Origin: Anaerolineae bacterium | Lineage (GTDB): Bacteria; Chloroflexota; Anaerolineae; JAADDB01 | DNA length: 64,000 bases | Assembly (NCBI GenBank): GCA_015490995.1 | Contig: WFWT01000001.1 | Coordinates: 10,021-74,020, forward strand | Direction of reading: 5' to 3' | Shown here: piece by piece, positions 2,097 through 32,013 of the stretch | Position numbering within the stretch: position 1 is the first letter of the stretch | How the letters are laid out: every line of letters begins with the position of its first letter | The notes under the pieces: generated by a model | What the model was told of the DNA's origin: nothing | Seen by the model: only the letters and a program-made list of their open reading frames with translations | The model's database searches: none | Program-made: the position numbers and the translations under genes

Positions 2097-5000
2097 ATGG
2101 CACGGCGAATGGTGACCATTGATGGCAATGAAGCAGTTGCCCGGGTAGCTTACATGACCAACGAGGTGATCGCCATTTACCCGATTACCCCAGCTTCTCC
2201 TATGGGGGAGCTAGCGGACGCGTGGGCAGCCGAGAGACGCCCTAATCTGTGGGGTACGGTACCGCTGGTCGTGGAAATGCAATCCGAAGGTGGTGCCGCC
2301 GGCGCGGTGCACGGGGCCCTGCAAACCGGCTCCCTCACCACAACGTTTACCGCCAGTCAAGGGCTCCTCTTGATGTTGCCCAACATGTACAAAATCGCAG
2401 GGGAGCTCACCAGCACGGTCTTCCACATAGCTACACGTACGGTGGCCACACACGCCCTCTCCATCTTTTGTGACCACAGCGATGTAATGGCAGCCCGCAC
2501 CACAGGTTGGGCTATCCTGTTCTCCAGCTCTGTTCAAGAAGCTCACGACTTCGCCCTGATCGCACAAGCGGCCACTCTTCGCGCTCGGGTGCCTTTTATT
2601 CACGCCTTTGACGGCTTTCGCACCTCGCACGAGATCAACAAGATCGTGCTGCTCTCCGAAGAGGACATGCGGGCCCTGATCGACGATGACCTCGTACGAG
2701 CACACCGGGAGCGGGCCCTCTCTCCTGACCGGCCGTTTATCCGAGGTACAGCACAAAATCCTGACGTCTTTTTCCAGGCTCGGGAGCGCATTAATCCCTT
2801 CTACGAAGCTACACCTGCCATTGTCCAAGAAGTGATGGACCAGTTCGCAGCCCGTACAGGTCGTGCCTACCACCTGTTCGACTACGTTGGCGCGGCCGAT
2901 GCCGAGCGGGTTATTGTTATCATGGGCTCCGGCGCAGAAACGGTGGAAGAGACAGTCAAGCACTTGGTAGCCGCCGGTGACAAGGTAGGTGTTGTGAAGG
3001 TGCGACTGTATCGCCCCTTCTCGGTAGCTCACTTCCTCCAAGTTCTACCCCCTACCGTGCGCGTCCTCACCGTGCTGGACCGCACGAAGGAACCGGGGGC
3101 CACAGGCGAACCGCTGTATCAAGATGTCGTTACTGCAGTTAGCGAAGGTCTAACTGCCGGCACCACACCCTTTGACCACATGCCTCGCATCCTCAGCGGC
3201 CGATATGGTCTCTCCTCAAAGGAATTCACGCCGGCCATGGTGAAGGGTATCTTCGACGAAATGACCAAAGAACAACCAAAGCACCACTTTACAGTAGGCA
3301 TTATCGACGACGTCTCTTACACCAGCATTGACTACGACCCCGAATTCTTCATTGAGTCACCCGATGTCACCCGAGCGGTGTTCTACGGCCTAGGCGCTGA
3401 CGGAACCGTCAGCGCTAACAAGAACTCCATCAAGATTATCGGAGAGGAGACTCCCTACCACGCCCAAGGCTACTTTGTGTACGACTCCAAGAAAGCGGGA
3501 GCGCGCACCGTCTCCCACCTCCGGTTCGGCCCTCACCCCATCAAAGCGCCCTATCTGATCCAAAAGGCCAACTTCGTGGCCGTACACCAGTTCGGCTTCT
3601 TGGAGCGATATCGTGTGCTGGACATTGCCGAAGAAGGAGCCACTTTTCTCCTCAACGCGCCTTACAGCCCGGAGGAGGTGTGGGACCACCTGCCGCGCGA
3701 AGTTCAGGAGCAAATCATTGCCAAACGCCTGAAGTTCTACGTCATCGACGCATACCGTTTGGCCAAAGAGTTGGGATTAGGTCAGCGCATTAACACCATC
3801 ATGCAAACGTGCTTCTTTGCCATCACCAACATTATTCCCTTAGAGGATGCCATCGCCCACATTAAAGAGGCCATACGCAAAACGTACGGCAAGCGAGGCG
3901 AGGTCATTGTGCGTAAGAATTTCGCAGCCGTGGACGCGGCACTGGAACACCTCCACGAGGTCACATACCCAGAGCGCGTGACGTCCACCCATACCATGCC
4001 TCCACCGGTGCCTCCGGAAGCACCCCAGTTTGTCCAGCAAGTGACCGCTTTCATGATCGCGGAACAAGGGGACCAGCTTCCGGTGAGTGCCATGCCTGTG
4101 GATGGTACGTGGCCTAGCGGCACTGCCCAATGGGAAAAGCGTAACATTTCGTTGGACGTGCCCGTGTGGGAACCGGATATCTGTATCCAGTGTGGTAAAT
4201 GCGTGCTTGTCTGCCCCCACGCGGTCATTCGGTCTAAAGTAGTGGATCCGGCGGACCTGAAGGACGCGCCGCCCACCTTCAAGTATGTGGACGCGCGTTT
4301 CCGGGAGTTCAAAGGTCAAGGCAAGCAGTACACCCTCCAGGTTTCGGTCGAGGACTGTACCGGATGTACCCTGTGTGTGGAGGTGTGTCCGGCCAAGGAT
4401 AAAACTCAGCCCAGCCGTAAAGCTCTGAACATGGCCCCCAAGCTGCCCATCCTGGAACAGGAACGGGAGAACTGGCGTTTCTTCCTCACGCTACCTGAAG
4501 TGCCACGACATAACGGCATCAAGTTCGACACGGTACGCAATGTGCAATTGTTACAGCCGCTGTTTGAGTTCTCGGGAGCATGTGCTGGGTGCGGTGAAAC
4601 GCCATATCTCAAACTGCTGAGCCAACTTTTCGGCGATCGCGCGTACATTGCCAATGCGACAGGGTGCTCCAGCATTTACGGCGGTAACCTCCCCACTACC
4701 CCGTGGACGTTCAACAAGGAGGGGCGTGGCCCCGCGTGGAGTAACTCCCTCTTTGAGGACAACGCAGAATTCGGTCTGGGCATGCGTCTCACTATTGACA
4801 AACAAGGGGAATATGCTCGGGAATTGGTACGTCAACTGCGGGAGTTAATCGGCCCGGATTTGGCCGACGCGATCCTAACCGCGGATCAACGTGATGAAGC
4901 CGGTATTGAGGCACAACGGGAACGGGTTGCCCTTCTAAAACAACGCCTGGCAGGCATCGATCACCCCCGTGTGCGCGATCTGTTGGCTGTAGCAGACATG

Positions 5001-5675
5001 CTCGTGCGCAAGAGCGTGTGGATCGTGGGAGGGGATGGTTGGGCCTACGATATTGGTTACGGCGGCCTGGACCACGTCCTCGCCAGCAACCGAAACGTCA
5101 ACATCCTTGTCCTTGATACAGAGGTCTACTCCAACACAGGGGGGCAAGCCTCTAAAGCGACCCCTCTCGCTGCCGTAGCCAAGTTCGCCATGGGCGGTAA
5201 AACAACCCCTAAAAAGGACCTAGGGCTCATGGCAATGACATACGGTAACGTGTATGTTGCTCAGGTGGCAATGGGGGCCAACGATGCCCACACCGTTCGC
5301 GCCTTTCTGGAAGCGGAGTCTTACGACGGACCCTCGCTCATCATCGCCTATAGCCACTGTATTGCCCACGGCATTGACATGGCTAAGGGGATGGAACAAC
5401 AGAAGCTCGCAGTGGAATCGGGCTACTGGCCTCTGTTCCGGTTTGACCCGCGCCGAAAAGCCGAGGGTAAGAATCCCTTCCAGTTGGACTCCAAAGCCCC
5501 GCGCATCCCCTTACGTGAGTACATGGAACGAGAGGCACGCTTCCGCATGTTACGCCAGACGAACCCAGAGGCCTTTGAACGCCTCATGGAGGCCGCGCAA
5601 AACGCGGTTCTGGAACGTTGGCGTCTTTACGAGCGTTTGGCGCAGGTCTGGGAACCGGAAAAGGTGATAGCCTAA
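2097..5675 (+). CDS. nifJ: Pyruvate:ferredoxin (flavodoxin) oxidoreductase, single-polypeptide PFOR
   Basis: 1192-aa ORF with a TPP/pyrimidine-binding N-terminus and two CxxCxxCxxxCP ferredoxin motifs (CIQCGKCVLVCP, CTGCTLCVEVCP). Also has the C-terminal TPP GDG motif and the canonical NifJ/PorA length and domain order. Confidence 0.95.
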   Translation: MARRMVTIDGNEAVARVAYMTNEVIAIYPITPASPMGELADAWAAERRPNLWGTVPLVVEMQSEGGAAGAVHGALQTGSLTTTFTASQGLLLMLPNMYKIAGELTSTVFHIATRTVATHALSIFCDHSDVMAARTTGWAILFSSSVQEAHDFALIAQAATLRARVPFIHAFDGFRTSHEINKIVLLSEEDMRALIDDDLVRAHRERALSPDRPFIRGTAQNPDVFFQARERINPFYEATPAIVQEVMDQFAARTGRAYHLFDYVGAADAERVIVIMGSGAETVEETVKHLVAAGDKVGVVKVRLYRPFSVAHFLQVLPPTVRVLTVLDRTKEPGATGEPLYQDVVTAVSEGLTAGTTPFDHMPRILSGRYGLSSKEFTPAMVKGIFDEMTKEQPKHHFTVGIIDDVSYTSIDYDPEFFIESPDVTRAVFYGLGADGTVSANKNSIKIIGEETPYHAQGYFVYDSKKAGARTVSHLRFGPHPIKAPYLIQKANFVAVHQFGFLERYRVLDIAEEGATFLLNAPYSPEEVWDHLPREVQEQIIAKRLKFYVIDAYRLAKELGLGQRINTIMQTCFFAITNIIPLEDAIAHIKEAIRKTYGKRGEVIVRKNFAAVDAALEHLHEVTYPERVTSTHTMPPPVPPEAPQFVQQVTAFMIAEQGDQLPVSAMPVDGTWPSGTAQWEKRNISLDVPVWEPDICIQCGKCVLVCPHAVIRSKVVDPADLKDAPPTFKYVDARFREFKGQGKQYTLQVSVEDCTGCTLCVEVCPAKDKTQPSRKALNMAPKLPILEQERENWRFFLTLPEVPRHNGIKFDTVRNVQLLQPLFEFSGACAGCGETPYLKLLSQLFGDRAYIANATGCSSIYGGNLPTTPWTFNKEGRGPAWSNSLFEDNAEFGLGMRLTIDKQGEYARELVRQLRELIGPDLADAILTADQRDEAGIEAQRERVALLKQRLAGIDHPRVRDLLAVADMLVRKSVWIVGGDGWAYDIGYGGLDHVLASNRNVNILVLDTEVYSNTGGQASKATPLAAVAKFAMGGKTTPKKDLGLMAMTYGNVYVAQVAMGANDAHTVRAFLEAESYDGPSLIIAYSHCIAHGIDMAKGMEQQKLAVESGYWPLFRFDPRRKAEGKNPFQLDSKAPRIPLREYMEREARFRMLRQTNPEAFERLMEAAQNAVLERWRLYERLAQVWEPEKVIA

Positions 5676-15291: not shown

Positions 15292-16008
15292 ATGGCCGAC
15301 GTCTTCCAGGCAACGGTGCGCATCTTTCGGTACAACCCCGAAGTGGACACTAAACCGCACTGGAAAGAGTACACGGTGGAAGTGGAACCCACCGATCGCG
15401 TCGTAGATGTCTTGCATAAAATAAAATGGTACCAAGACGGCACCCTCGCGTTTCGGCGATCGTGCCTCCACGGCATTTGTGGTTCCGATGCCATGGTCAT
15501 CAACGGCCGCAATGCCCTCGCCTGCAAGGTGCTTATGAAAACTTTGGGGCCGAAAGTGGTGATCGAGCCCCTGCGGGGCTTTCGGGTGATAAAGGACTTG
15601 GTCGTGGACATGGAACCCTTCTTTGCCAAATACCGTTCCATCTTGCCCTACCTGATCAACTATGATCCCCCTCCGGCGCGGGAACGACGACAGTCGCCGA
15701 CAGAACGCGCGCGCTTTGACGATACGACCAAGTGCATCCTTTGTGCAGCTTGCACCACCTCCTGCCCCTCCTTCTGGGCTAACCCCCACTATATCGGACC
15801 GGCAGCCATAGTACAGGCCCACCGCTTCATCTTCGACAGCCGAGATCAAGCCTGGGCCGAACGGCTGCGCATCCTGGCGGATCGGGACGGCGTATGGCGG
15901 TGTCGCAGTGTGTTCAACTGCGTGGAAGCCTGCCCCCGAGAGATCAACATCAAAAAGGCCATTGCCGAAGTTCAACAAGCCATCATCACGGGATCTCGTG
16001 ACCTGTAG
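15292..16008 (+). CDS. sdhB: Succinate dehydrogenase iron-sulfur subunit
   Basis: 2Fe-2S region (CLHGICGSDAMVINGRNALAC) plus CxxCxxCxxxCP and a second Cys cluster (CRSVFNCVEACP). Confidence 0.92.
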   Translation: MADVFQATVRIFRYNPEVDTKPHWKEYTVEVEPTDRVVDVLHKIKWYQDGTLAFRRSCLHGICGSDAMVINGRNALACKVLMKTLGPKVVIEPLRGFRVIKDLVVDMEPFFAKYRSILPYLINYDPPPARERRQSPTERARFDDTTKCILCAACTTSCPSFWANPHYIGPAAIVQAHRFIFDSRDQAWAERLRILADRDGVWRCRSVFNCVEACPREINIKKAIAEVQQAIITGSRDL

Positions 16009-26042: not shown

Positions 26043-26636
26043 TTAGGAACCCGAGGGGCTAGGAGGTAACCATGATGTATGAGCGTTGAGACGGGTAGCG
26101 ATGTCCGCGTGAAGCTGTGGGATGACGGTAGCGTACAGGAGTTCCCCGGCCTCTGTGGACTCAGCACCTAAGGTAACTGCAGCTTCAACATCCGCGACAG
26201 GGCCGTGGAAAAACACGAGGCCTTTACCCCCCAGCCCATCGGCCAAACGCACTTCCAGAAGCTGGACCTCCGCTCCTTTCCGACCGGCATCCGCAGCCCG
26301 GATGGCCGCCGCTACCGTGCGTGTTTCGACAATGCCAAGCGCTTCCAACACAGGCGGCCAGCGAGCCCCCTGTTCAACCGCCGCGACTACATCCTCGTGT
26401 ACTCCGGGTAAGTATACCTCACCTACCAGAGCAGCCGCGCCGGCCCGGCGACCGGCTACCAGAGCTTCCTCAACTTCTGCCACCGCGCCGGCCACTAATA
26501 CCAACAGCTTTCCCGGCTGGACAGTGCCCACGTGTACGTGGGCTACCGCCGCTCGTTTCACCATCGCATCGGCTGCTTCAATGCCCACAGCAATGCTGTC
26601 AAACTCCAGCAACGCCAAGGCCGGGTAGGTAGTCAC
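26043..26636 (-). CDS. BMC shell protein, tandem BMC-domain trimer type (BMC-T, PduT-like)
   Basis: Two consecutive PF00936-like BMC domains ([26 protein letters not shown] ... and ALGIVETRTVAAAIRAADAGRKGAEV ...), collinear with PduT. The pore Cys of PduT is replaced (GTVQPGK); GTG start with an AGGAGGGAAGG SD. Confidence 0.8.
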   Translation of the reverse strand: MTTYPALALLEFDSIAVGIEAADAMVKRAAVAHVHVGTVQPGKLLVLVAGAVAEVEEALVAGRRAGAAALVGEVYLPGVHEDVVAAVEQGARWPPVLEALGIVETRTVAAAIRAADAGRKGAEVQLLEVRLADGLGGKGLVFFHGPVADVEAAVTLGAESTEAGELLYATVIPQLHADIATRLNAHTSWLPPSPSGS

Positions 26637-26651: not shown

Positions 26652-28157
26652 TTATACAATACGGAAGTGGTCAACCAGGGTGCAGCGGCGTGGCCGGGCA
26701 AAGGTGCGTGCGTTGGTCAACCCTTCGCCGGTAGGACTGGCGATGCTGAAGGAGGTATATCCTTCCCCGCCATAGCCTAACCCGGCCAAGTTAGGCCCGT
26801 TCTTCACAAAGATCGAGGTGTTTATCTCTCGGGCCATCCGGCTTAGATTATCCAGATTTCGGGACCACATCACAGCCGTATGGCCAAAACCATGTTCGGC
26901 CTCCACGGCCAGCCTGATCGCTTCATCCACATCCCGCACTCGCACAATGGGCAATACCGGCATCAATTGTTCTGTCCACACCAGTGGATGCTCTACAGGC
27001 ACCTCAATGATAATCAGGCGGACACGGTCATCTGCAGGGATGCCCAACTCCTTAAGGAGGGCTGCGGCCGATTTCCCCACCCACGATTTACGAATGACCC
27101 CCGGCCGACGTGGTCCACGCATTTCCTCAAAAATGATCTTCTCTAAACTGCGGACGCGATAGGATGGTAATTCTACGGCGCCGTGAGCTGTCATAGCCTG
27201 TTTCAGGGCATCTGCGACTTGATCTACGACGAACACCTCCTTTTCATCGGTGCATACGATGTTATTGTCAAAGGATGCCCCCATTACTATGCCCTGACCG
27301 GCCTTTTCAATGTCGGCCGTCTCATCTACTACCACGGGGGGATTTCCAGGACCGGCACAGATAGCCCGCTTACCCGAGCGCATGGCCTCTCGCACCACCC
27401 CCGGCCCACCGGTAACCAGCAATAACCGCACACCGGGATGACGCATAAGTGCCTGTGCCGTCTCTATGGTGGGGTCCGCGCACGCGGTGATCAAGTCCGG
27501 CGGTCCCCCTGCCGCTCGGATAGCTCGGTTCAGCAACTGAATCTGGAAGGTGTTCACCTGTTTGGCACCGGGATGTACATTGAATACCACGGCGTTGCCC
27601 GCGCTAATAATGCTGATTGCGTTGTTGATGACCGTAGCCGTGGGGTTGGTGATAGGTGTAATCGCGGCAACCACACCGTACGGAGCCCACTCTGTAAGGG
27701 TCAACCCGTCATCACCACTCCATGCTACCGGCTCTAAAATTTCTGGTCCCGGGGTTTTGGTAGCGACTAGCTCGTTCTTTTTGACCTTATCCTCCACTCG
27801 ACCGAGACCCGTTTCCTCATGGGCCATGCGTGCCAGGAGCTCAGCGTTTTGCAGAGAGACGTCCCGAATGGCCTGAATGATGCGCTTTCGCGCGGCAAGG
27901 CTCAAACGGTTTAGCTTCTGATAAGCCACCCGTGCCGCGCGCACGGCGCTATCCACATCTGGATAGATGCCATCCTCGCCGGAGACCACAGGAGGAGCGA
28001 TTTCTCGGCCAACCCGGCCTACATGTGAAAGGTGAGGAGGTGGCCCTTCCTCCTTCTGCACCTGAGAAGCTCCCGTCACCGTTCGGCCTTCACGCTCCTT
28101 TAAAGCGGTCAGAACACGCTGTGTGATCGCCTCGATAGTACGTTCATCCAAAGGCAT
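26652..28157 (-). CDS. CoA-acylating aldehyde dehydrogenase (PduP/EutE family) with N-terminal encapsulation peptide
   Basis: Catalytic region VCTDEKEV and overall PduP/EutE-like architecture. N-terminal amphipathic helix ERTIEAITQRVLTALKE followed by a Pro/Gly-rich linker, as in BMC-targeted aldehyde dehydrogenases. Confidence 0.88.
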   Translation of the reverse strand: MPLDERTIEAITQRVLTALKEREGRTVTGASQVQKEEGPPPHLSHVGRVGREIAPPVVSGEDGIYPDVDSAVRAARVAYQKLNRLSLAARKRIIQAIRDVSLQNAELLARMAHEETGLGRVEDKVKKNELVATKTPGPEILEPVAWSGDDGLTLTEWAPYGVVAAITPITNPTATVINNAISIISAGNAVVFNVHPGAKQVNTFQIQLLNRAIRAAGGPPDLITACADPTIETAQALMRHPGVRLLLVTGGPGVVREAMRSGKRAICAGPGNPPVVVDETADIEKAGQGIVMGASFDNNIVCTDEKEVFVVDQVADALKQAMTAHGAVELPSYRVRSLEKIIFEEMRGPRRPGVIRKSWVGKSAAALLKELGIPADDRVRLIIIEVPVEHPLVWTEQLMPVLPIVRVRDVDEAIRLAVEAEHGFGHTAVMWSRNLDNLSRMAREINTSIFVKNGPNLAGLGYGGEGYTSFSIASPTGEGLTNARTFARPRRCTLVDHFRIV

Positions 28158-28160
28158 GGG

Positions 28161-28457
28161 TTACTCCGCTCCTTTGCGGTATTTCACCTCACCGTTCACT
28201 TCCCACTCGTCAATGATAGCCATGATCACCGCGTCACAGGGTCGCTTGTCCGTCAGGACGGTCTGGCGGGCTGAGGAGCCCGTGGCATACAACACATATT
28301 CACCAACACCTGCTCCCACTGCGTCCACGGCCACCACATATCCCTCTTTCTCCTGGCCGTTGACGTCTACCTGGCGCAGGAGAAGAAATTTCAACCCCTC
28401 CATCTTTGGGTCCTTCCGGGTTGCGACAACAGTACCCACCACTTTGCCTATGAGCAT
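28161..28457 (-). CDS. BMC vertex protein (BMC-P; EutN/PduN/CcmL family)
   Basis: 98-aa protein [15 protein letters not shown]...LKFLLL matching the EutN/CcmL fold signature. ATG at 28457 with a GTGAGG SD; an alternative GTG at 28469 overlaps the upstream stop. Confidence 0.8.
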
Positions 28458-28465
28458 GGTTCGCC

Positions 28466-29308
28466 TCACTTGGGCTTTAGCTCTATGTCGACGGATGGGG
28501 ATTCGGACGTGGGCGGTTCAACCTGGGCTTTGGGTTGACGTGGTACCCCGGGGCGCGTTGCCACTCGGGGACGCCGGGCGCGCTTGGGTGGAGGCGCCGT
28601 GCGCGCGATAAACGCGCGCAACCGTTCACCTGCCCGGTCCGTCAGCACCGGCCCATGGCCAAAACACGCTACCTGTACATTCTTCAGCCGCCCTAGCTTA
28701 CGCAGTGAATCGCGCACAATCTCAGGCTGAGGGGTGAACACAGCCGGTGGAAGCGCCAGTTTTCCTCTCCGATGAGAAATTACATCCCCCACAAAGAGTA
28801 CTCCTGTCTCCTTGTGATAAAGGGACATATGGCCTGGCGTGTGACCGGGCGTGTGGATGACCTGTAGACCGTTGTCCAGTACCTCGGTATCCACCACCAA
28901 CAGGTCGGGCTGCAAGCGGGGTAGCCGTAACACGGTGCGACTGAGCAAGAAGTAAAGGGGGGTGATCAACACGCCCAGGGGATGTCGGAAATTAGGCCAC
29001 CGATGCCATTTCCCTTTAAAAAACATCGCCTCAATGGCATGCACCACTACGCGCGCGCCTGTCGCCTCTCGGATCACCCGCAACCCACCGGCATGATCGG
29101 TGTCGGCATGGGTGATGAGAATCTCCTTTATGTCTTCTGGGTTAAACCCTGCTTCCTTGATTGCGTTTAGGATCTTCTTACCATGCCATGGAAGGCCGGT
29201 GTCAATGAGGGCGAGATGACCATCCCATCGCCACAAGTAGACGTTTACCGAACTACCGATATCATCAATGTGCCACACATTTTCGGCTATCTCCTTCACG
29301 CGGCTCAC
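28466..29308 (-). CDS. MBL-fold metallo-hydrolase embedded in the BMC operon
   Basis: Beta-lactamase-fold motifs: the metal-binding motif reads [11 protein letters not shown] (H-x-D-x-D-H variant of HxHxDH), plus downstream HTPGHTPGH and a GD..H ligand region. Pro/Arg/Lys-rich C-terminal tail of about 45 aa. Confidence 0.8.
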
Positions 29309-29335: not shown

Positions 29336-29632
29336 TCACGTGTTCTCCACTGCTTCTTGACGACCCAGGGGGAGCACACGGTCCACGTTCGGGTGCGGCC
29401 GCGGAATGACGTGGACAGCAACGACTTCACCCACACGCTCGGCGTTACGTGCACCTGCTTCCACCGCTGCCTTTACCGCCGCCACGTCGCCCCGCACAAT
29501 AGCGGTGACATACCCGCCCCCGGTTTTCTCGTATCCTACCAGTTCAACCTTTGCTGCCTTGACCATAGCATCCGCGGCTTCCACCACGGCGGCAAAACTA
29601 CGGCATTCGATCATACCCAACGCTTCGGCCAT
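29336..29632 (-). CDS. BMC hexamer shell protein (BMC-H, PduA/CcmK-like)
   Basis: MAEALGMIE...[42 protein letters not shown]...VHVIPRPH is a near-canonical BMC-H sequence; ATG at 29632 with an AAGGAGGG SD. Confidence 0.92.
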
Positions 29633-29752
29633 TGTGCCCTCCTTGCCCATTTGAAGTAAAGTTAAAAATGACGGTTCACTCTTTCACAGCCTCATGTTTC
29701 GGGCTAAGAGAACGTCCCATAGGACGAACGGGAGCTCTCCCAATAATCGTGA

Positions 29753-30385
29753 CTATCCGCCGCTCAGGGGACGACCGGTAATGCTTTCGATGGCTTCCAC
29801 GGCTGCCCCATAGCCGGCCATGATATCCCGCTCCTCACCACCCAGGTAAACACGACCAAACGCTCCAAAGGCCCTCACCTCCAAGATGTTGATGTGGGCC
29901 CGCTTCTCGGCCTCGTTGGCAGCAAGGGCTGCATACCCCGCGGGCTCAACTTCTAAGACATAAAGGGTTTGCCCGGGAATAAGCATGTGCCCATGACGCA
30001 TCCGGTTGATCAGCTGGGCTTGAAGTCCGTGTACGTTCCGAATAATTTGGCTGGAAAGAATGCGAGGCTTCAGCCGGTCCTCCTCTTGGAGGCCCAGAGC
30101 CTCCAAAATAGCCACGCCCGCCGCGCGCACATCCGCTTGGGATGGCCCGTGCACTTCTAACAGGCCATACCGTCGTTCCACAATTTGCATGCCCGGGAAC
30201 ACCCCCGTGGCTTTGATGGCAATATCCGTCACCCGGTTGATCTCAATCCCCGGTGAGATCTCCACCCACAAGGAGGCATCGCCGGCCAACGGGAGGAATC
30301 CCTGGGCTACCGTGCCCAGAAAGGCGGCAAATTGGGGTTGCAAGCTATCAATGAACACAAACGACCGGAGTTGCACGTCACTCAT
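29753..30385 (-). CDS. BMC shell protein, double-stacking tandem-domain type (BMC-T, CcmP/CsoS1D-like)
   Basis: 210 aa with two BMC-like halves (...[20 protein letters not shown]... and ...[18 protein letters not shown]...GGEERD...), strongly reminiscent of carboxysomal CcmP. Overlaps the deoC stop by 8 nt. Confidence 0.72.
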
Positions 30386-31292
30386 AGAGGGCCTCCTTTT
30401 GATGGGAAGGGTGTGCTACCTGGGCGGACGCAGAACCGGACTCGGTAACAATTTTCACACCCGCACTGGCACCGATACGTGTGGCGCCGGCGGCGATCAT
30501 TTGCCAGGCAACCTCTGCAGTGCGAATACCACCAGCAGCCTTTACCCCTACTTCTCCACCGACCACGCGACGCATCAGCGCGACATCCTCTACTGTAGCG
30601 CCGCCTGGACCGAACCCGGTGGAGGTTTTTACATAATCGGCTCCTGCAGCTTTCGCCAGCACACAGGCCTCCACTTTCTCTTCATCGGTCAGCAAGGCAG
30701 CTTCGATAATAACCTTCACGATCGCTCCCTGCCGATGGGCCACCTGGACTACAGCAGCGATGTCCTCTGCCACTGCCGCGTACTGCTTGGACTTAAGGCG
30801 GCCGATGTTGATGACCATGTCGATCTCACGTGCGCCATGCGCTATACTCCGCTCGGTCTCATATGCTTTTACCTCGGTCAACGTCGCCCCCAGGGGAAAG
30901 CCCACCACGGTACACACGGCAACATCGCTCCCGGCCAGCAGCTCTCGGCACAGGGCCACCCAGGTGGGATTAACACACACCGCAGCAAAACGGTATTGTT
31001 TAGCTTCCGCACACAAACGACGAACTTGCTCCTCAGTAGCATCCGGTTTGAGCAGAGTGTGGTCAATGTACCGAGCTAAATCGGAAGCCACATTGCCTAC
31101 GCCCAATCGGGCGCTTAACCGATCGGCCCCGGCATTCAACATGGCGCGGGCCGCTTCCGGGCTGTGAACAACGCAATTGCCATCACAGGAGGTACACACT
31201 TCGCAGGACGCGCGACCGTACCGACGCAGCACTTCGTCGGTAATGAGATCGATCAGTTGATCCAAAGTGTACTCCCCAATACGTTCAACCAT
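30378..31292 (-). CDS. deoC: Deoxyribose-phosphate aldolase (DERA) with 80-aa N-terminal extension (encapsulation-peptide-like helix plus CxxCxxCx3C motif)
   Basis: DERA core from [15 protein letters not shown] through the catalytic Lys regions ([14 protein letters not shown]). The N-terminal [18 protein letters not shown] helix and [13 protein letters not shown] motif precede the catalytic domain. Confidence 0.88.
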
Positions 31293-32013
31293 CTTTCCCT
31301 CGAGACCGCATGTAGCGTCGTTCGATTTGCATGATCTTATCCACCCGTCGCCGGTGTCGTCCGCCGCCGTACGGCGTCTCCAACCAGGTTTTCACAATCT
31401 GTTTGGCCAGGTTCGGGCCGATGAGGCCCGCGCCCAGGGTTAGCACGTTCGCGTGGTTGTGTTCACGGCTATTCACCGCGGTAGCTATATCATAGCACAT
31501 CGCAGCACGAACGCCCGGAACTTTGTTACACACCATACAGGAGCCAATCCCCGCGCCGTCGATCATGATGCCATACGTCACTTTACCCTGGGCCACCAGT
31601 TGTGCCACCGCGTACGCGAAGTCCGGATAATCGACGCTTTCCGTACTGTGAGTGCCCACGTCGACACAATCCCACCCCAGCTCTCGCAGATAAGGCTTGA
31701 GGGTTTCTTTCAACGCGTATCCCCCATGATCGGCCCCAATGGCAATCACACGTGCATCCCGAGCCGTGACGTTGGGCACCAGCGTATCTTCCACCAGTTG
31801 AATACCACGCTCGCGTGCCCGCTCGCGGGCCAGAGGGGTAACAATAGCACCAGAGGGGACATGAACCACATCACCTTCCGAGAATCGCTCCACAAAAGCC
31901 GCGTCGATAAGGCGACGGTCCTCAGCGGTATTGTCTGTCACAGCCTGCTCAGCCACGAGGCGACGCACGATCTCTTCCACCAGACGACGGACATCCTCGC
32001 GAGAGGGATTCAC
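31285..32013 (-). CDS. rpiB: Ribose-5-phosphate isomerase B (RpiB/LacAB family) with 90-aa N-terminal extension carrying an encapsulation-peptide-like helix
   Basis: RpiB core begins [14 protein letters not shown] and includes the active-site Cys region [11 protein letters not shown]-terminal [17 protein letters not shown] amphipathic helix; start overlaps the lepB stop (ATGA). Confidence 0.85.

Follow-up and report, generated by a model that had tools for sequence, protein, structure and literature searches.

The DNA analyzed here is a 64-kb stretch of an Anaerolineae bacterium genome (contig WFWT01000001.1), which we refer to in its entirety as the window. Between positions 26043 and 32013, and with all of its genes on the minus strand, the window carries a microcompartment operon of the SPU6 type, as judged from Pfam matches and open reading frames (ORFs). 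The operon encodes DERA, RpiB, an aldehyde dehydrogenase (AldDH), and the shell proteins BMC-H, BMC-Tdp, BMC-Ts, and BMC-P, without PduS or PTAC, which is the gene content that marks an SPU6 locus. SPU systems are reported to be among the most widespread microcompartment types and have DERA as their signature enzyme (PMC11585597, PMC8217296). The deoxyribose-phosphate aldolase (DERA, DeoC) of the window is a protein of 304 aa encoded at 30378..31292 (minus, Pfam DeoC), and the subject of this study is its N-terminal extension, in which an amphipathic helix, a short loop with four cysteines, and a helix-strand element follow one another. Based upon the conservation of its ligand residues, the cysteine loop probably binds a metal, and the helix-strand element is a diverged internal copy of a unit of the catalytic barrel, as is supported statistically.

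The Pfam DeoC hidden Markov model (HMM) covers aa 75–281 of the protein only (E 2.5e-16; 60.4 bits against a gathering cut-off of 23.8), which places the cysteine motif in the N-terminal extension. The catalytic part is an ordinary short bacterial barrel. In our alignment of homologues (alignment A1), the residues expected of a class I DeoC, D158, K222, and K251, are invariant together with K193, while Foldseek comparisons of the barrel with 8qps, 6d33, and 5dbu gave 61–66% identity and target-normalised TM-scores of 0.95–0.98, the root-mean-square deviation to the solved bacterial DERAs (8qps, 6d33, 5dbu, and 3ngj) being 0.7–0.8 Å. None of the solved DERA structures among the Foldseek matches covers the extension, and as far as solved structures are concerned, the cysteine-bearing element is indeed lacking from canonical DERAs, as the original prediction made from this DNA had stated. 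That prediction, which concerned 31050..31292 (DERA residues 1–81), had also raised the concern that the true start codon might lie downstream of the cysteines. The annotated start can be considered sound, because it overlaps the RpiB stop by 8 nt, a Shine-Dalgarno-like GAGGGA is located 4–9 nt upstream of it, and the residues preceding the motif exhibit protein-level conservation in more than 200 homologues.

The arrangement that had been described for the extension, a run of cysteines between an encapsulation-type helix and the DeoC barrel, is evident in the translation, with the cysteines at positions 30, 33, 36, and 40. The helix (aa 8–25; 31218..31271, minus) is of the encapsulation-peptide type, is conserved across homologues, and has the terminal position, amphipathic character, and length (about 15–20 residues) by which such peptides are recognized; AlphaFold2 (AF2) predicts it as a helix at residues 10–25 with pLDDT values of 84–91. 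The cysteine-rich knuckle, a putative four-ligand metal site, reads C30-EV-C33-TS-C36-DGN-C40-VV-H43 (31164..31205, minus), and the helix-strand element occupies aa 44–68 (31089..31163, minus).

Among the relatives of this protein, it is the number of cysteines that is conserved and not their spacing. In 202 anchored sequences from at least 10 phyla, for which cysteines were counted over the 30 residues preceding the AGAxR motif, 187 extensions (93%) contain at least four. Exactly four are present in 147 sequences, five in 11, and six in 29, with three in 6, two in 3, and none in 6 further sequences. Cysteine accounts for 13.9% of these 30 residues versus 2.7% of the catalytic domain, and in alignment A1 C33, C36, and C40 are each at least 90% conserved. 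By contrast, at least 34 spacing patterns occur, mostly composed of two short pairs (CxxC, CxC, or CxxxC) around a loop of 2–6 residues. Common patterns are CxxCx3-4CxxxC, Cx3Cx4Cx3C, and CxCx3-4Cx3C, with the spacings 2-4-3, 2-3-3, 3-4-3, 1-3-3, and 1-4-3 being dominant; a class with n-2-2 spacing fits the two-pair arrangement less well. The CxxCxxCxxxC of the window protein had been taken as the spacing typical of 4Fe-4S ferredoxin clusters, and this spacing is certainly present. However, it is shared by only 10 of the 202 relatives, the fourth cysteine is followed by Val, and Fer4 models are silent on it. The ferredoxin-like spacing is therefore particular to the lineage of the window, and the 2-2-3 spacing found here differs from the 2-3-3 and 2-4-3 spacings common in Chloroflexi relatives only by a shorter loop. 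Comparison with homologues, by which the original prediction proposed to judge the motif, thus upholds the cysteines as a set, but not their ferredoxin spacing: what is conserved is the presence of four ligands in a short loop. The conserved number of cysteines in orthologues speaks for genuine ligands, the simplest case being a metal site.

Among the best 120 database homologues (64–100% identity, mostly Chloroflexota), at least four cysteines are found in 114 and the window spacing in only 7. A profile of the extension searched against 1.84 billion representatives matched only 195 proteins at E ≤ 0.001; among the best 150 of these 195, nearly all readable matches are DERA N-termini, and two, P0187 (an ankyrin-repeat protein) and P0245, clearly have no relation to them. 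Another 80 loci came from a scan of genomes and belong to Chloroflexota, Bacteroidota, Ignavibacteria, Acidobacteriota, Gemmatimonadota, actinobacterial lineages, Elusimicrobia, and further phyla.

The variants of the site are informative as to its probable nature. A His is located nearby in 5 of the 6 three-cysteine variants (P0006, P0172, P0173, P0222, and P0256), one acidobacterial group has C-SP-HH-IA-C, a set of two Cys and two His, and in the P0056 group C30 is missing and a cysteine has been gained at position 44, which amounts to ligand compensation. Other lineages retain a pair only, such as the Anaerolinea-type sequences, in which CVVEVANGVKVKTC is an evident hydrophobic beta-hairpin, and the Pyrinomonadaceae, which have YCPTFC. 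Melioribacter-type sequences exhibit C-x4-C-x-G-W, and several groups have no cysteine at all. In some lineages, it is thus a hydrophobic beta-hairpin or a Trp that stands in place of the cysteine site. Parsimony on a neighbor-joining tree of the catalytic domain places a four-ligand site at the root, followed by at least 11 losses among 199 sequences, and the cysteine-less DERAs P0063, whose loop reads VHDQQW, and P0197 are encoded in loci having the same RPI-DERA-shell-AldDH gene order as the cysteine-bearing ones. The two-pair arrangement and the tolerated interchange of Cys and His are both as expected of a structural Cys4 knuckle. Comparable variation is known from the structural metal sites of the C+/C- zinc-ribbon ribosomal proteins, the adenylate kinase lid, and the structural zinc of alcohol dehydrogenase (CxxCxxC...C). 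Like these, the site in DERA retains its ligand number, interchanges Cys and His, makes up for a missing ligand, and has disappeared cleanly several times, which is how structural metal sites behave. One of the loci whose DERA is devoid of all four cysteines has an extra ORF of 83 aa after DERA (L001:2770-3021). Its product reads MSQREVLIMLAHAQWCIPCRQKLLHDP..., with a thioredoxin-like WCxPC motif, and the window has no equivalent gene.

Conservation within the extension is highest not in the cysteine loop, but in the helix-strand element at aa 44–68, in which A54, G55, A56, R58, and G64 are invariant. This element corresponds to the genuine alpha7-beta8 unit of the barrel (aa 258–282; 30447..30521, minus), with 11 of 25 residues identical in the window protein (44% as given by hhalign). 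The alignment of the extension with the catalytic part by hhalign has an E-value of 5e-6 (1.8e-5 with a 201-sequence alignment), and the repeat score is 33.8 compared to 11.6 ± 2.4 (maximum 22.1) in 150 column shuffles. Furthermore, the extension profile matches the C-terminal end of 8 different solved DERAs. The presence of a diverged alpha7-beta8 copy directly before beta1 is thus statistically supported, and it suggests that a partial duplication at the 3' end of the gene may have given rise to the extension. Docking of the copy on the genuine unit, or a swap between the two, is a matter of speculation. A repeat spanning the whole extension, in which the N-terminal helix would correspond to alpha6 and the cysteine loop to beta7, was considered and rejected, as hhalign backs aa 42–70 only and the longer alignment has a P-value of 0.07.

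The extension as such is not new. For the characterized Chloroflexi SPU6 DERA, an extension of approximately 70 aa was described as an encapsulation peptide consisting of a helix and two low-confidence beta strands; it makes the enzyme aggregate, and upon its deletion the enzyme is soluble, active, and dimeric, and RPI binding is retained (Dwyer, Sutter & Kerfeld 2024, PMC11585597). Shell genes adjoin the extended DERA in the window and in approximately 35–40 related loci. A strict confinement of the extension to the neighborhood of shell genes has to be rejected as stated, since in Acidobacteriota, Bacteroidota, and Ignavibacteria there are also extended DERAs that have no shell gene nearby (within 6 kb). 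This holds for DERAs with the complete N-terminal module in L011, L056, L069, L083, and about 35 other genome loci (for example, in Melioribacter), and the extended DERAs of the Pyrinomonadaceae lie near a helix-bearing RpiB and a deoB-like gene. Such DERAs may represent cargo whose genes lie apart from those of the shell; BMC loci elsewhere in the genome have been reported for Acidobacteria subdivisions 4/6 and Melioribacter roseus (PMC8217296, PMC4207490).

The redox context of the site differs from locus to locus. The original prediction had pointed out that the PduT homologue of this operon has lost its cluster-binding cysteine, and this is the case: the BMC-Ts of the window (26043..26636, minus; two Pfam BMC domains), a PduT-like tandem BMC protein, has QPGK in place of the cluster-binding CPGK, whereas the PduS-containing SPU loci have CPGK (L087:8174-8722) or CAGK (L088:8258-8818). 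The shell encoded in the window, as far as its sequence tells, probably has no pore Fe-S cluster. SPU6 is also the sole SPU subtype reported to be without a PduS homologue (PMC11585597). The DERA cysteine site is kept both here, where PduS is absent and BMC-Ts has QPGK, and in loci that have PduS and a cysteine-bearing BMC-Ts; hence, it does not co-vary with the Fe-S conduit of the shell. Among the 80 genome loci, no PduS-like ORF was encountered within ±6 kb, so the comparison of cysteine loss with the presence of PduS is uninformative there. Electron transfer across the shell, which had been proposed as one function of the site, appears unlikely at the window locus, because there is no PduS, BMC-Ts has no pore cysteine, the DERA reaction is redox-neutral, and the site has been lost repeatedly from otherwise unchanged loci. 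Nor does an Fe-S or Zn site on a BMC cargo enzyme seem as unusual as had been assumed, since PduS and the activating enzymes of glycyl-radical enzymes both have metal sites.

A distinct architecture is found in about a dozen DERAs of 430–500 aa (P0159, P0218, P0262, P0230, and others), in which a flavoprotein-like PF02441 domain of approximately 180 aa is inserted between the N-terminal helix and the cysteine region. The order in these proteins is helix, PF02441, usually C-x(n)-CxxCGxC, and DERA (L087:10001-11425 and L088:10001-11386). Both of the loci that were looked up are of the SPU type and have genes for PduS, PTAC, and a cysteine-bearing BMC-Ts as well. A preprint on Hodarchaeales reports a flavoprotein-DERA fusion and is silent on its cysteines.

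Our preferred reading, which we hold with about even confidence, is that the cysteine loop is a dispensable structural four-ligand metal knuckle, most likely for Zn2+. All three parts of this reading are inferred, namely the binding of a metal, its identity as Zn, and a role of the site in structure or assembly. The four cysteines, possibly with His43 as a spare ligand, would form a small tetrahedral metal-binding knuckle, and the N-terminal module of microcompartment-associated DERAs would accordingly comprise an amphipathic helix, the knuckle, and the diverged alpha7-beta8 copy. The knuckle would rigidify the short loop joining the helix (or elsewhere the inserted flavoprotein-like domain) to the helix-strand element and the barrel, and would serve the folding, orientation, or self-association of the cargo rather than catalysis or electron transfer. 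A structural or assembly role is plausible, and the site is not catalytic, given that the homologue from which the whole extension was removed remains a functional enzyme. A spacing of the CxxCxxC type also occurs in the structural Zn site of the medium-chain alcohol dehydrogenases. The loop, with its 11–13 residues and low AF2 confidence, would presumably have room for a mononuclear site, whereas a cubane cluster would find little protection in it.

Several observations weigh against this reading. The cysteine regions of 60 diverse sequences did not match a described zinc-finger or zinc-ribbon family, apart from one match to zf-CXXC (E 0.002) and one to a phage Zn-binding domain (E 0.095), whereas 7 of the 60 gave weak matches to the Fer4 clan (best E-values 1e-4 to 5e-3). 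AF2, run on the full protein from a 47-sequence alignment and also on the extension alone, has no confident fold for the cysteine loop: pLDDT exceeds 90 in the barrel, but is approximately 60–72 in the loop and below 50 at aa 55–67. The lineages with CxxCGxC (20 of 202) are a further point of this kind, as are P0144, which has a complete CxxCxxCxxxCP together with an upstream cysteine, and the location of the knuckle after the PF02441 domain in several lineages, where a redox cofactor would make sense. Finally, the Cx3Cx4Cx3C sequences set the cysteines as cross-strand hairpin pairs, which would be better suited to two disulfides than to one metal ion.

Alternatively, the cysteines might ligate a [4Fe-4S] or [2Fe-2S] cluster, perhaps located where DERA meets another subunit, RPI, or the shell, with a function in redox or O2 sensing or in electron transfer inside the compartment. 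We consider this unlikely, although it is a serious contender. The window motif has the CxxCxxCxxxC spacing, weak Fer4-clan matches are the commonest family class among the 60 diverse sequences, and the CxxCGxC lineages and P0144 with its full CxxCxxCxxxCP also speak for a cluster. In a MAFFT alignment of the 60, C33, C36, and C40 form a near-invariant triad, while the fourth cysteine shifts upstream or downstream; an invariant triad with a variable fourth cysteine is common in single-cluster proteins. Synthetic 16-residue peptides with four cysteines in 3-2-2 spacing can hold a [4Fe-4S] cluster, and in the flavoprotein fusions the motif directly follows PF02441 in loci with PduS and a CPGK-type BMC-Ts. 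In the window protein, however, there is no Cys-Pro, and the Fer4 HMMs found nothing in its extension at E ≤ 10, whereas with the same library the positive controls, PFOR and an SdhB-like protein, scored 30–50 bits. All six reading frames of the 64-kb window together contain no more than four C..C..C...C motifs, so that the one in DERA is more than chance; the other three are genuine Fer4 domains ending in Cys-Pro, in PFOR (2097..5675, plus) and in an SdhB-like/FrdB-like Fe-S subunit (15292..16008, plus). A comparison of the extension profile with PDB sequences returned only non-significant matches for the cysteine region (E 0.8–9), a mix of Fe-S (HdrC, ELP3, ACDS) and Zn (PHD finger, bL32) proteins. 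Further points against a cluster are the unconserved spacing, the at least 11 losses without a change of locus, the His replacements including the variant with two Cys and two His, the shortness of the loop, and the retention of the site in Pyrinomonadaceae and Blastocatellia, which are lineages reported to be aerobic. The window locus also has neither PduS nor the BMC-Ts pore cysteine, and the chemistry of DERA requires no electrons.

A pure disulfide staple ranks lower than an Fe-S cluster, and we regard it as improbable. Here, the cysteines would be metal-free, and reversible disulfides would staple the hairpin or loop and provide a thiol/disulfide switch of cargo stiffness or self-association, as has been proposed for the carboxysome scaffold CcmM. 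The Anaerolineae sequence CKLNCADGLCVKTC makes the best case for it, as its spacing is 3-4-3, the same as in the two-disulfide peptide tachyplesin, and with a DG turn in the middle the pairs C1/C14 and C5/C10 face each other across a hairpin. A sister group retains the outer pair only, around the obvious hairpin CVVEVANGVKVKTC, and the Pyrinomonadaceae retain the CxxxC pair only; in addition, the cysteine count is even in 185 of the 202 sequences (3 or 5 cysteines in 17). The two low-confidence beta strands reported by Dwyer et al. fall here (PMC11585597). However, most patterns (2-4-3, 2-3-3, 2-2-3, and 1-3-3) do not provide cross-strand cysteine partners, and the His found in place of Cys in several variants is of no use to a disulfide. 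Many of the hosts, such as Levilinea, Bellilinea, and Anaerolinea, are strict anaerobes with a reducing cytoplasm, and an oxidising metabolosome lumen is without any support. One could also combine elements of these alternatives into a metal- or redox-gated assembly switch, in which the occupancy of a labile Fe-S or redox-sensitive Zn site would determine whether the alpha7-beta8 copy docks or swaps with the genuine C-terminal alpha7-beta8 of a neighboring subunit, thereby polymerising DERA into a cargo core, and in which the site of the flavoprotein fusions could pass on flavin electrons; we consider such a switch improbable. Least probable is a cysteine run without function, either left over as a relic or due to an accident of composition in a disordered linker. 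The low AF2 confidence, the dispensability for catalysis in the homologue, and the loss in several lineages would all agree with a relic, but at least four cysteines persist in 93% of the sequences across at least 10 phyla, while their surroundings have diverged to approximately 30% mean column identity. The proportion of cysteine is moreover five times that in the rest of the protein, and by parsimony the site was already present at the root of the family.

The remaining genes of the operon are as follows. Upstream of DERA, the RpiB-type isomerase (31285..32013, minus; Pfam LacAB_rpiB E 2.9e-54, aa 90–227) is its translationally coupled partner and has an N-terminal helix of its own; RPI and DERA are reported to form a complex in a homologous system (PMC11585597). 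The N-terminal extension of RpiB (31747..32013, minus) combines this amphipathic helix with an 18-residue stretch resembling the peripheral-subunit (E3) binding domain of 2-oxoacid dehydrogenases. The match of this stretch to Pfam E3_binding (E 0.018) is below threshold, and a similar stretch is present in the RPI-DERA fusion P0257; judging from this resemblance, it may be a protein-protein docking motif. DERA is followed by a CsoS1D-like BMC-T shell protein of the double-stacking type (29753..30385, minus), which has a weak Pfam BMC match and whose orthologues in L001, L003, and L005 are annotated as CsoS1D_N, and by a BMC-H shell protein (29336..29650, minus; Pfam BMC E 2.4e-31). Next is a metallo-beta-lactamase-fold protein (28466..29308, minus; Pfam Lactamase_B E 9.6e-34), the gene for which is kept in this operon type, as it is also found in the related loci L001, L007, and L008. 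The operon further encodes a BMC-P (EutN/CcmL) pentamer protein (28161..28469, minus; Pfam EutN_CcmL E 8.6e-31) and the AldDH, a metabolosome core enzyme (26652..28157, minus; Pfam Aldedh E 1.8e-41), which lies between BMC-P and BMC-Ts. The BMC-P gene is the only one detected in the window by tblastn, whereas triplets of BMC-P are described in the literature for SPU loci.

The DERA of the window and the Chloroflexi SPU6 DERA described previously belong to the same family and share the RPI-DERA-shell-AldDH operon without PduS or PTAC as well as the extension of about 70 residues with its amphipathic helix. However, the main text of that study is silent on cysteines, metal, or an internal repeat in the extension (PMC11585597), and cysteines, Zn, or Fe-S in the DERA extension are likewise unmentioned in the rest of the literature searched, including the 2021 BMC catalogue, the 2014 taxonomy, and the Asgard preprint. 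While the extension is already published, neither the conserved Cys4 knuckle nor the internal repeat has been described for this known family. Like the canonical encapsulation peptides of the PduP, PduD, and EutC type, DERA has a terminal amphipathic helix of about 18 residues linked to the enzyme. Unlike in those proteins, the "linker" is not poorly conserved, but holds the Cys4 knuckle and the helix-strand repeat, and some DERA lineages have an entire flavoprotein-like domain inserted behind the helix.

Comparison with known cysteine sites yields partial parallels as well. With the Fer4 motif, the window protein shares the 2-2-3 spacing, and in a minority of relatives CxxCGxC or the complete motif is present and Fer4 models match weakly. 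However, DERA has a single motif in a loop and not a beta-alpha-beta domain, the window protein lacks the proline and an HMM match, and the spacing is not fixed among orthologues. In true ferredoxins, the fourth cysteine of the motif ligates a second cluster. The pore [4Fe-4S] of PduT/BMC-Ts with its PduS (MNdh) conduit is likewise a cysteine-based site in a microcompartment component, but each subunit contributes one cysteine to it at the trimer pore (CPGK), and PduS is its partner; the window locus has neither of these. Further parallels are the Zn(Cys)4 sites that have been gained and lost in the alcohol dehydrogenase lobe, the zinc-ribbon ribosomal proteins, and the adenylate kinase lid. 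These also consist of four cysteines in a short surface loop, are catalytically dispensable, can be replaced by non-metal packing, and occasionally include a His; the structural-zinc lobe of the medium-chain alcohol dehydrogenases, for example, uses Cys97/100/103/111. In DERA, by comparison, the metal is putative, the loop belongs to a targeting extension rather than to the catalytic fold, and there is no match to a zinc-finger family.

If the site were an Fe-S cluster after all, a cargo enzyme without redox chemistry would have a redox cofactor, and this in a compartment type lacking the PduS conduit that is otherwise usual. If the extension needs a bound metal, this would help to account for the aggregation of the full-length enzyme in E. 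coli, and the model of an encapsulation peptide plus a flexible linker would apply differently to DERA cargo. A metal requirement would also offer a simple handle for studies of cargo-core assembly and for the engineering of DERA-loaded shells.

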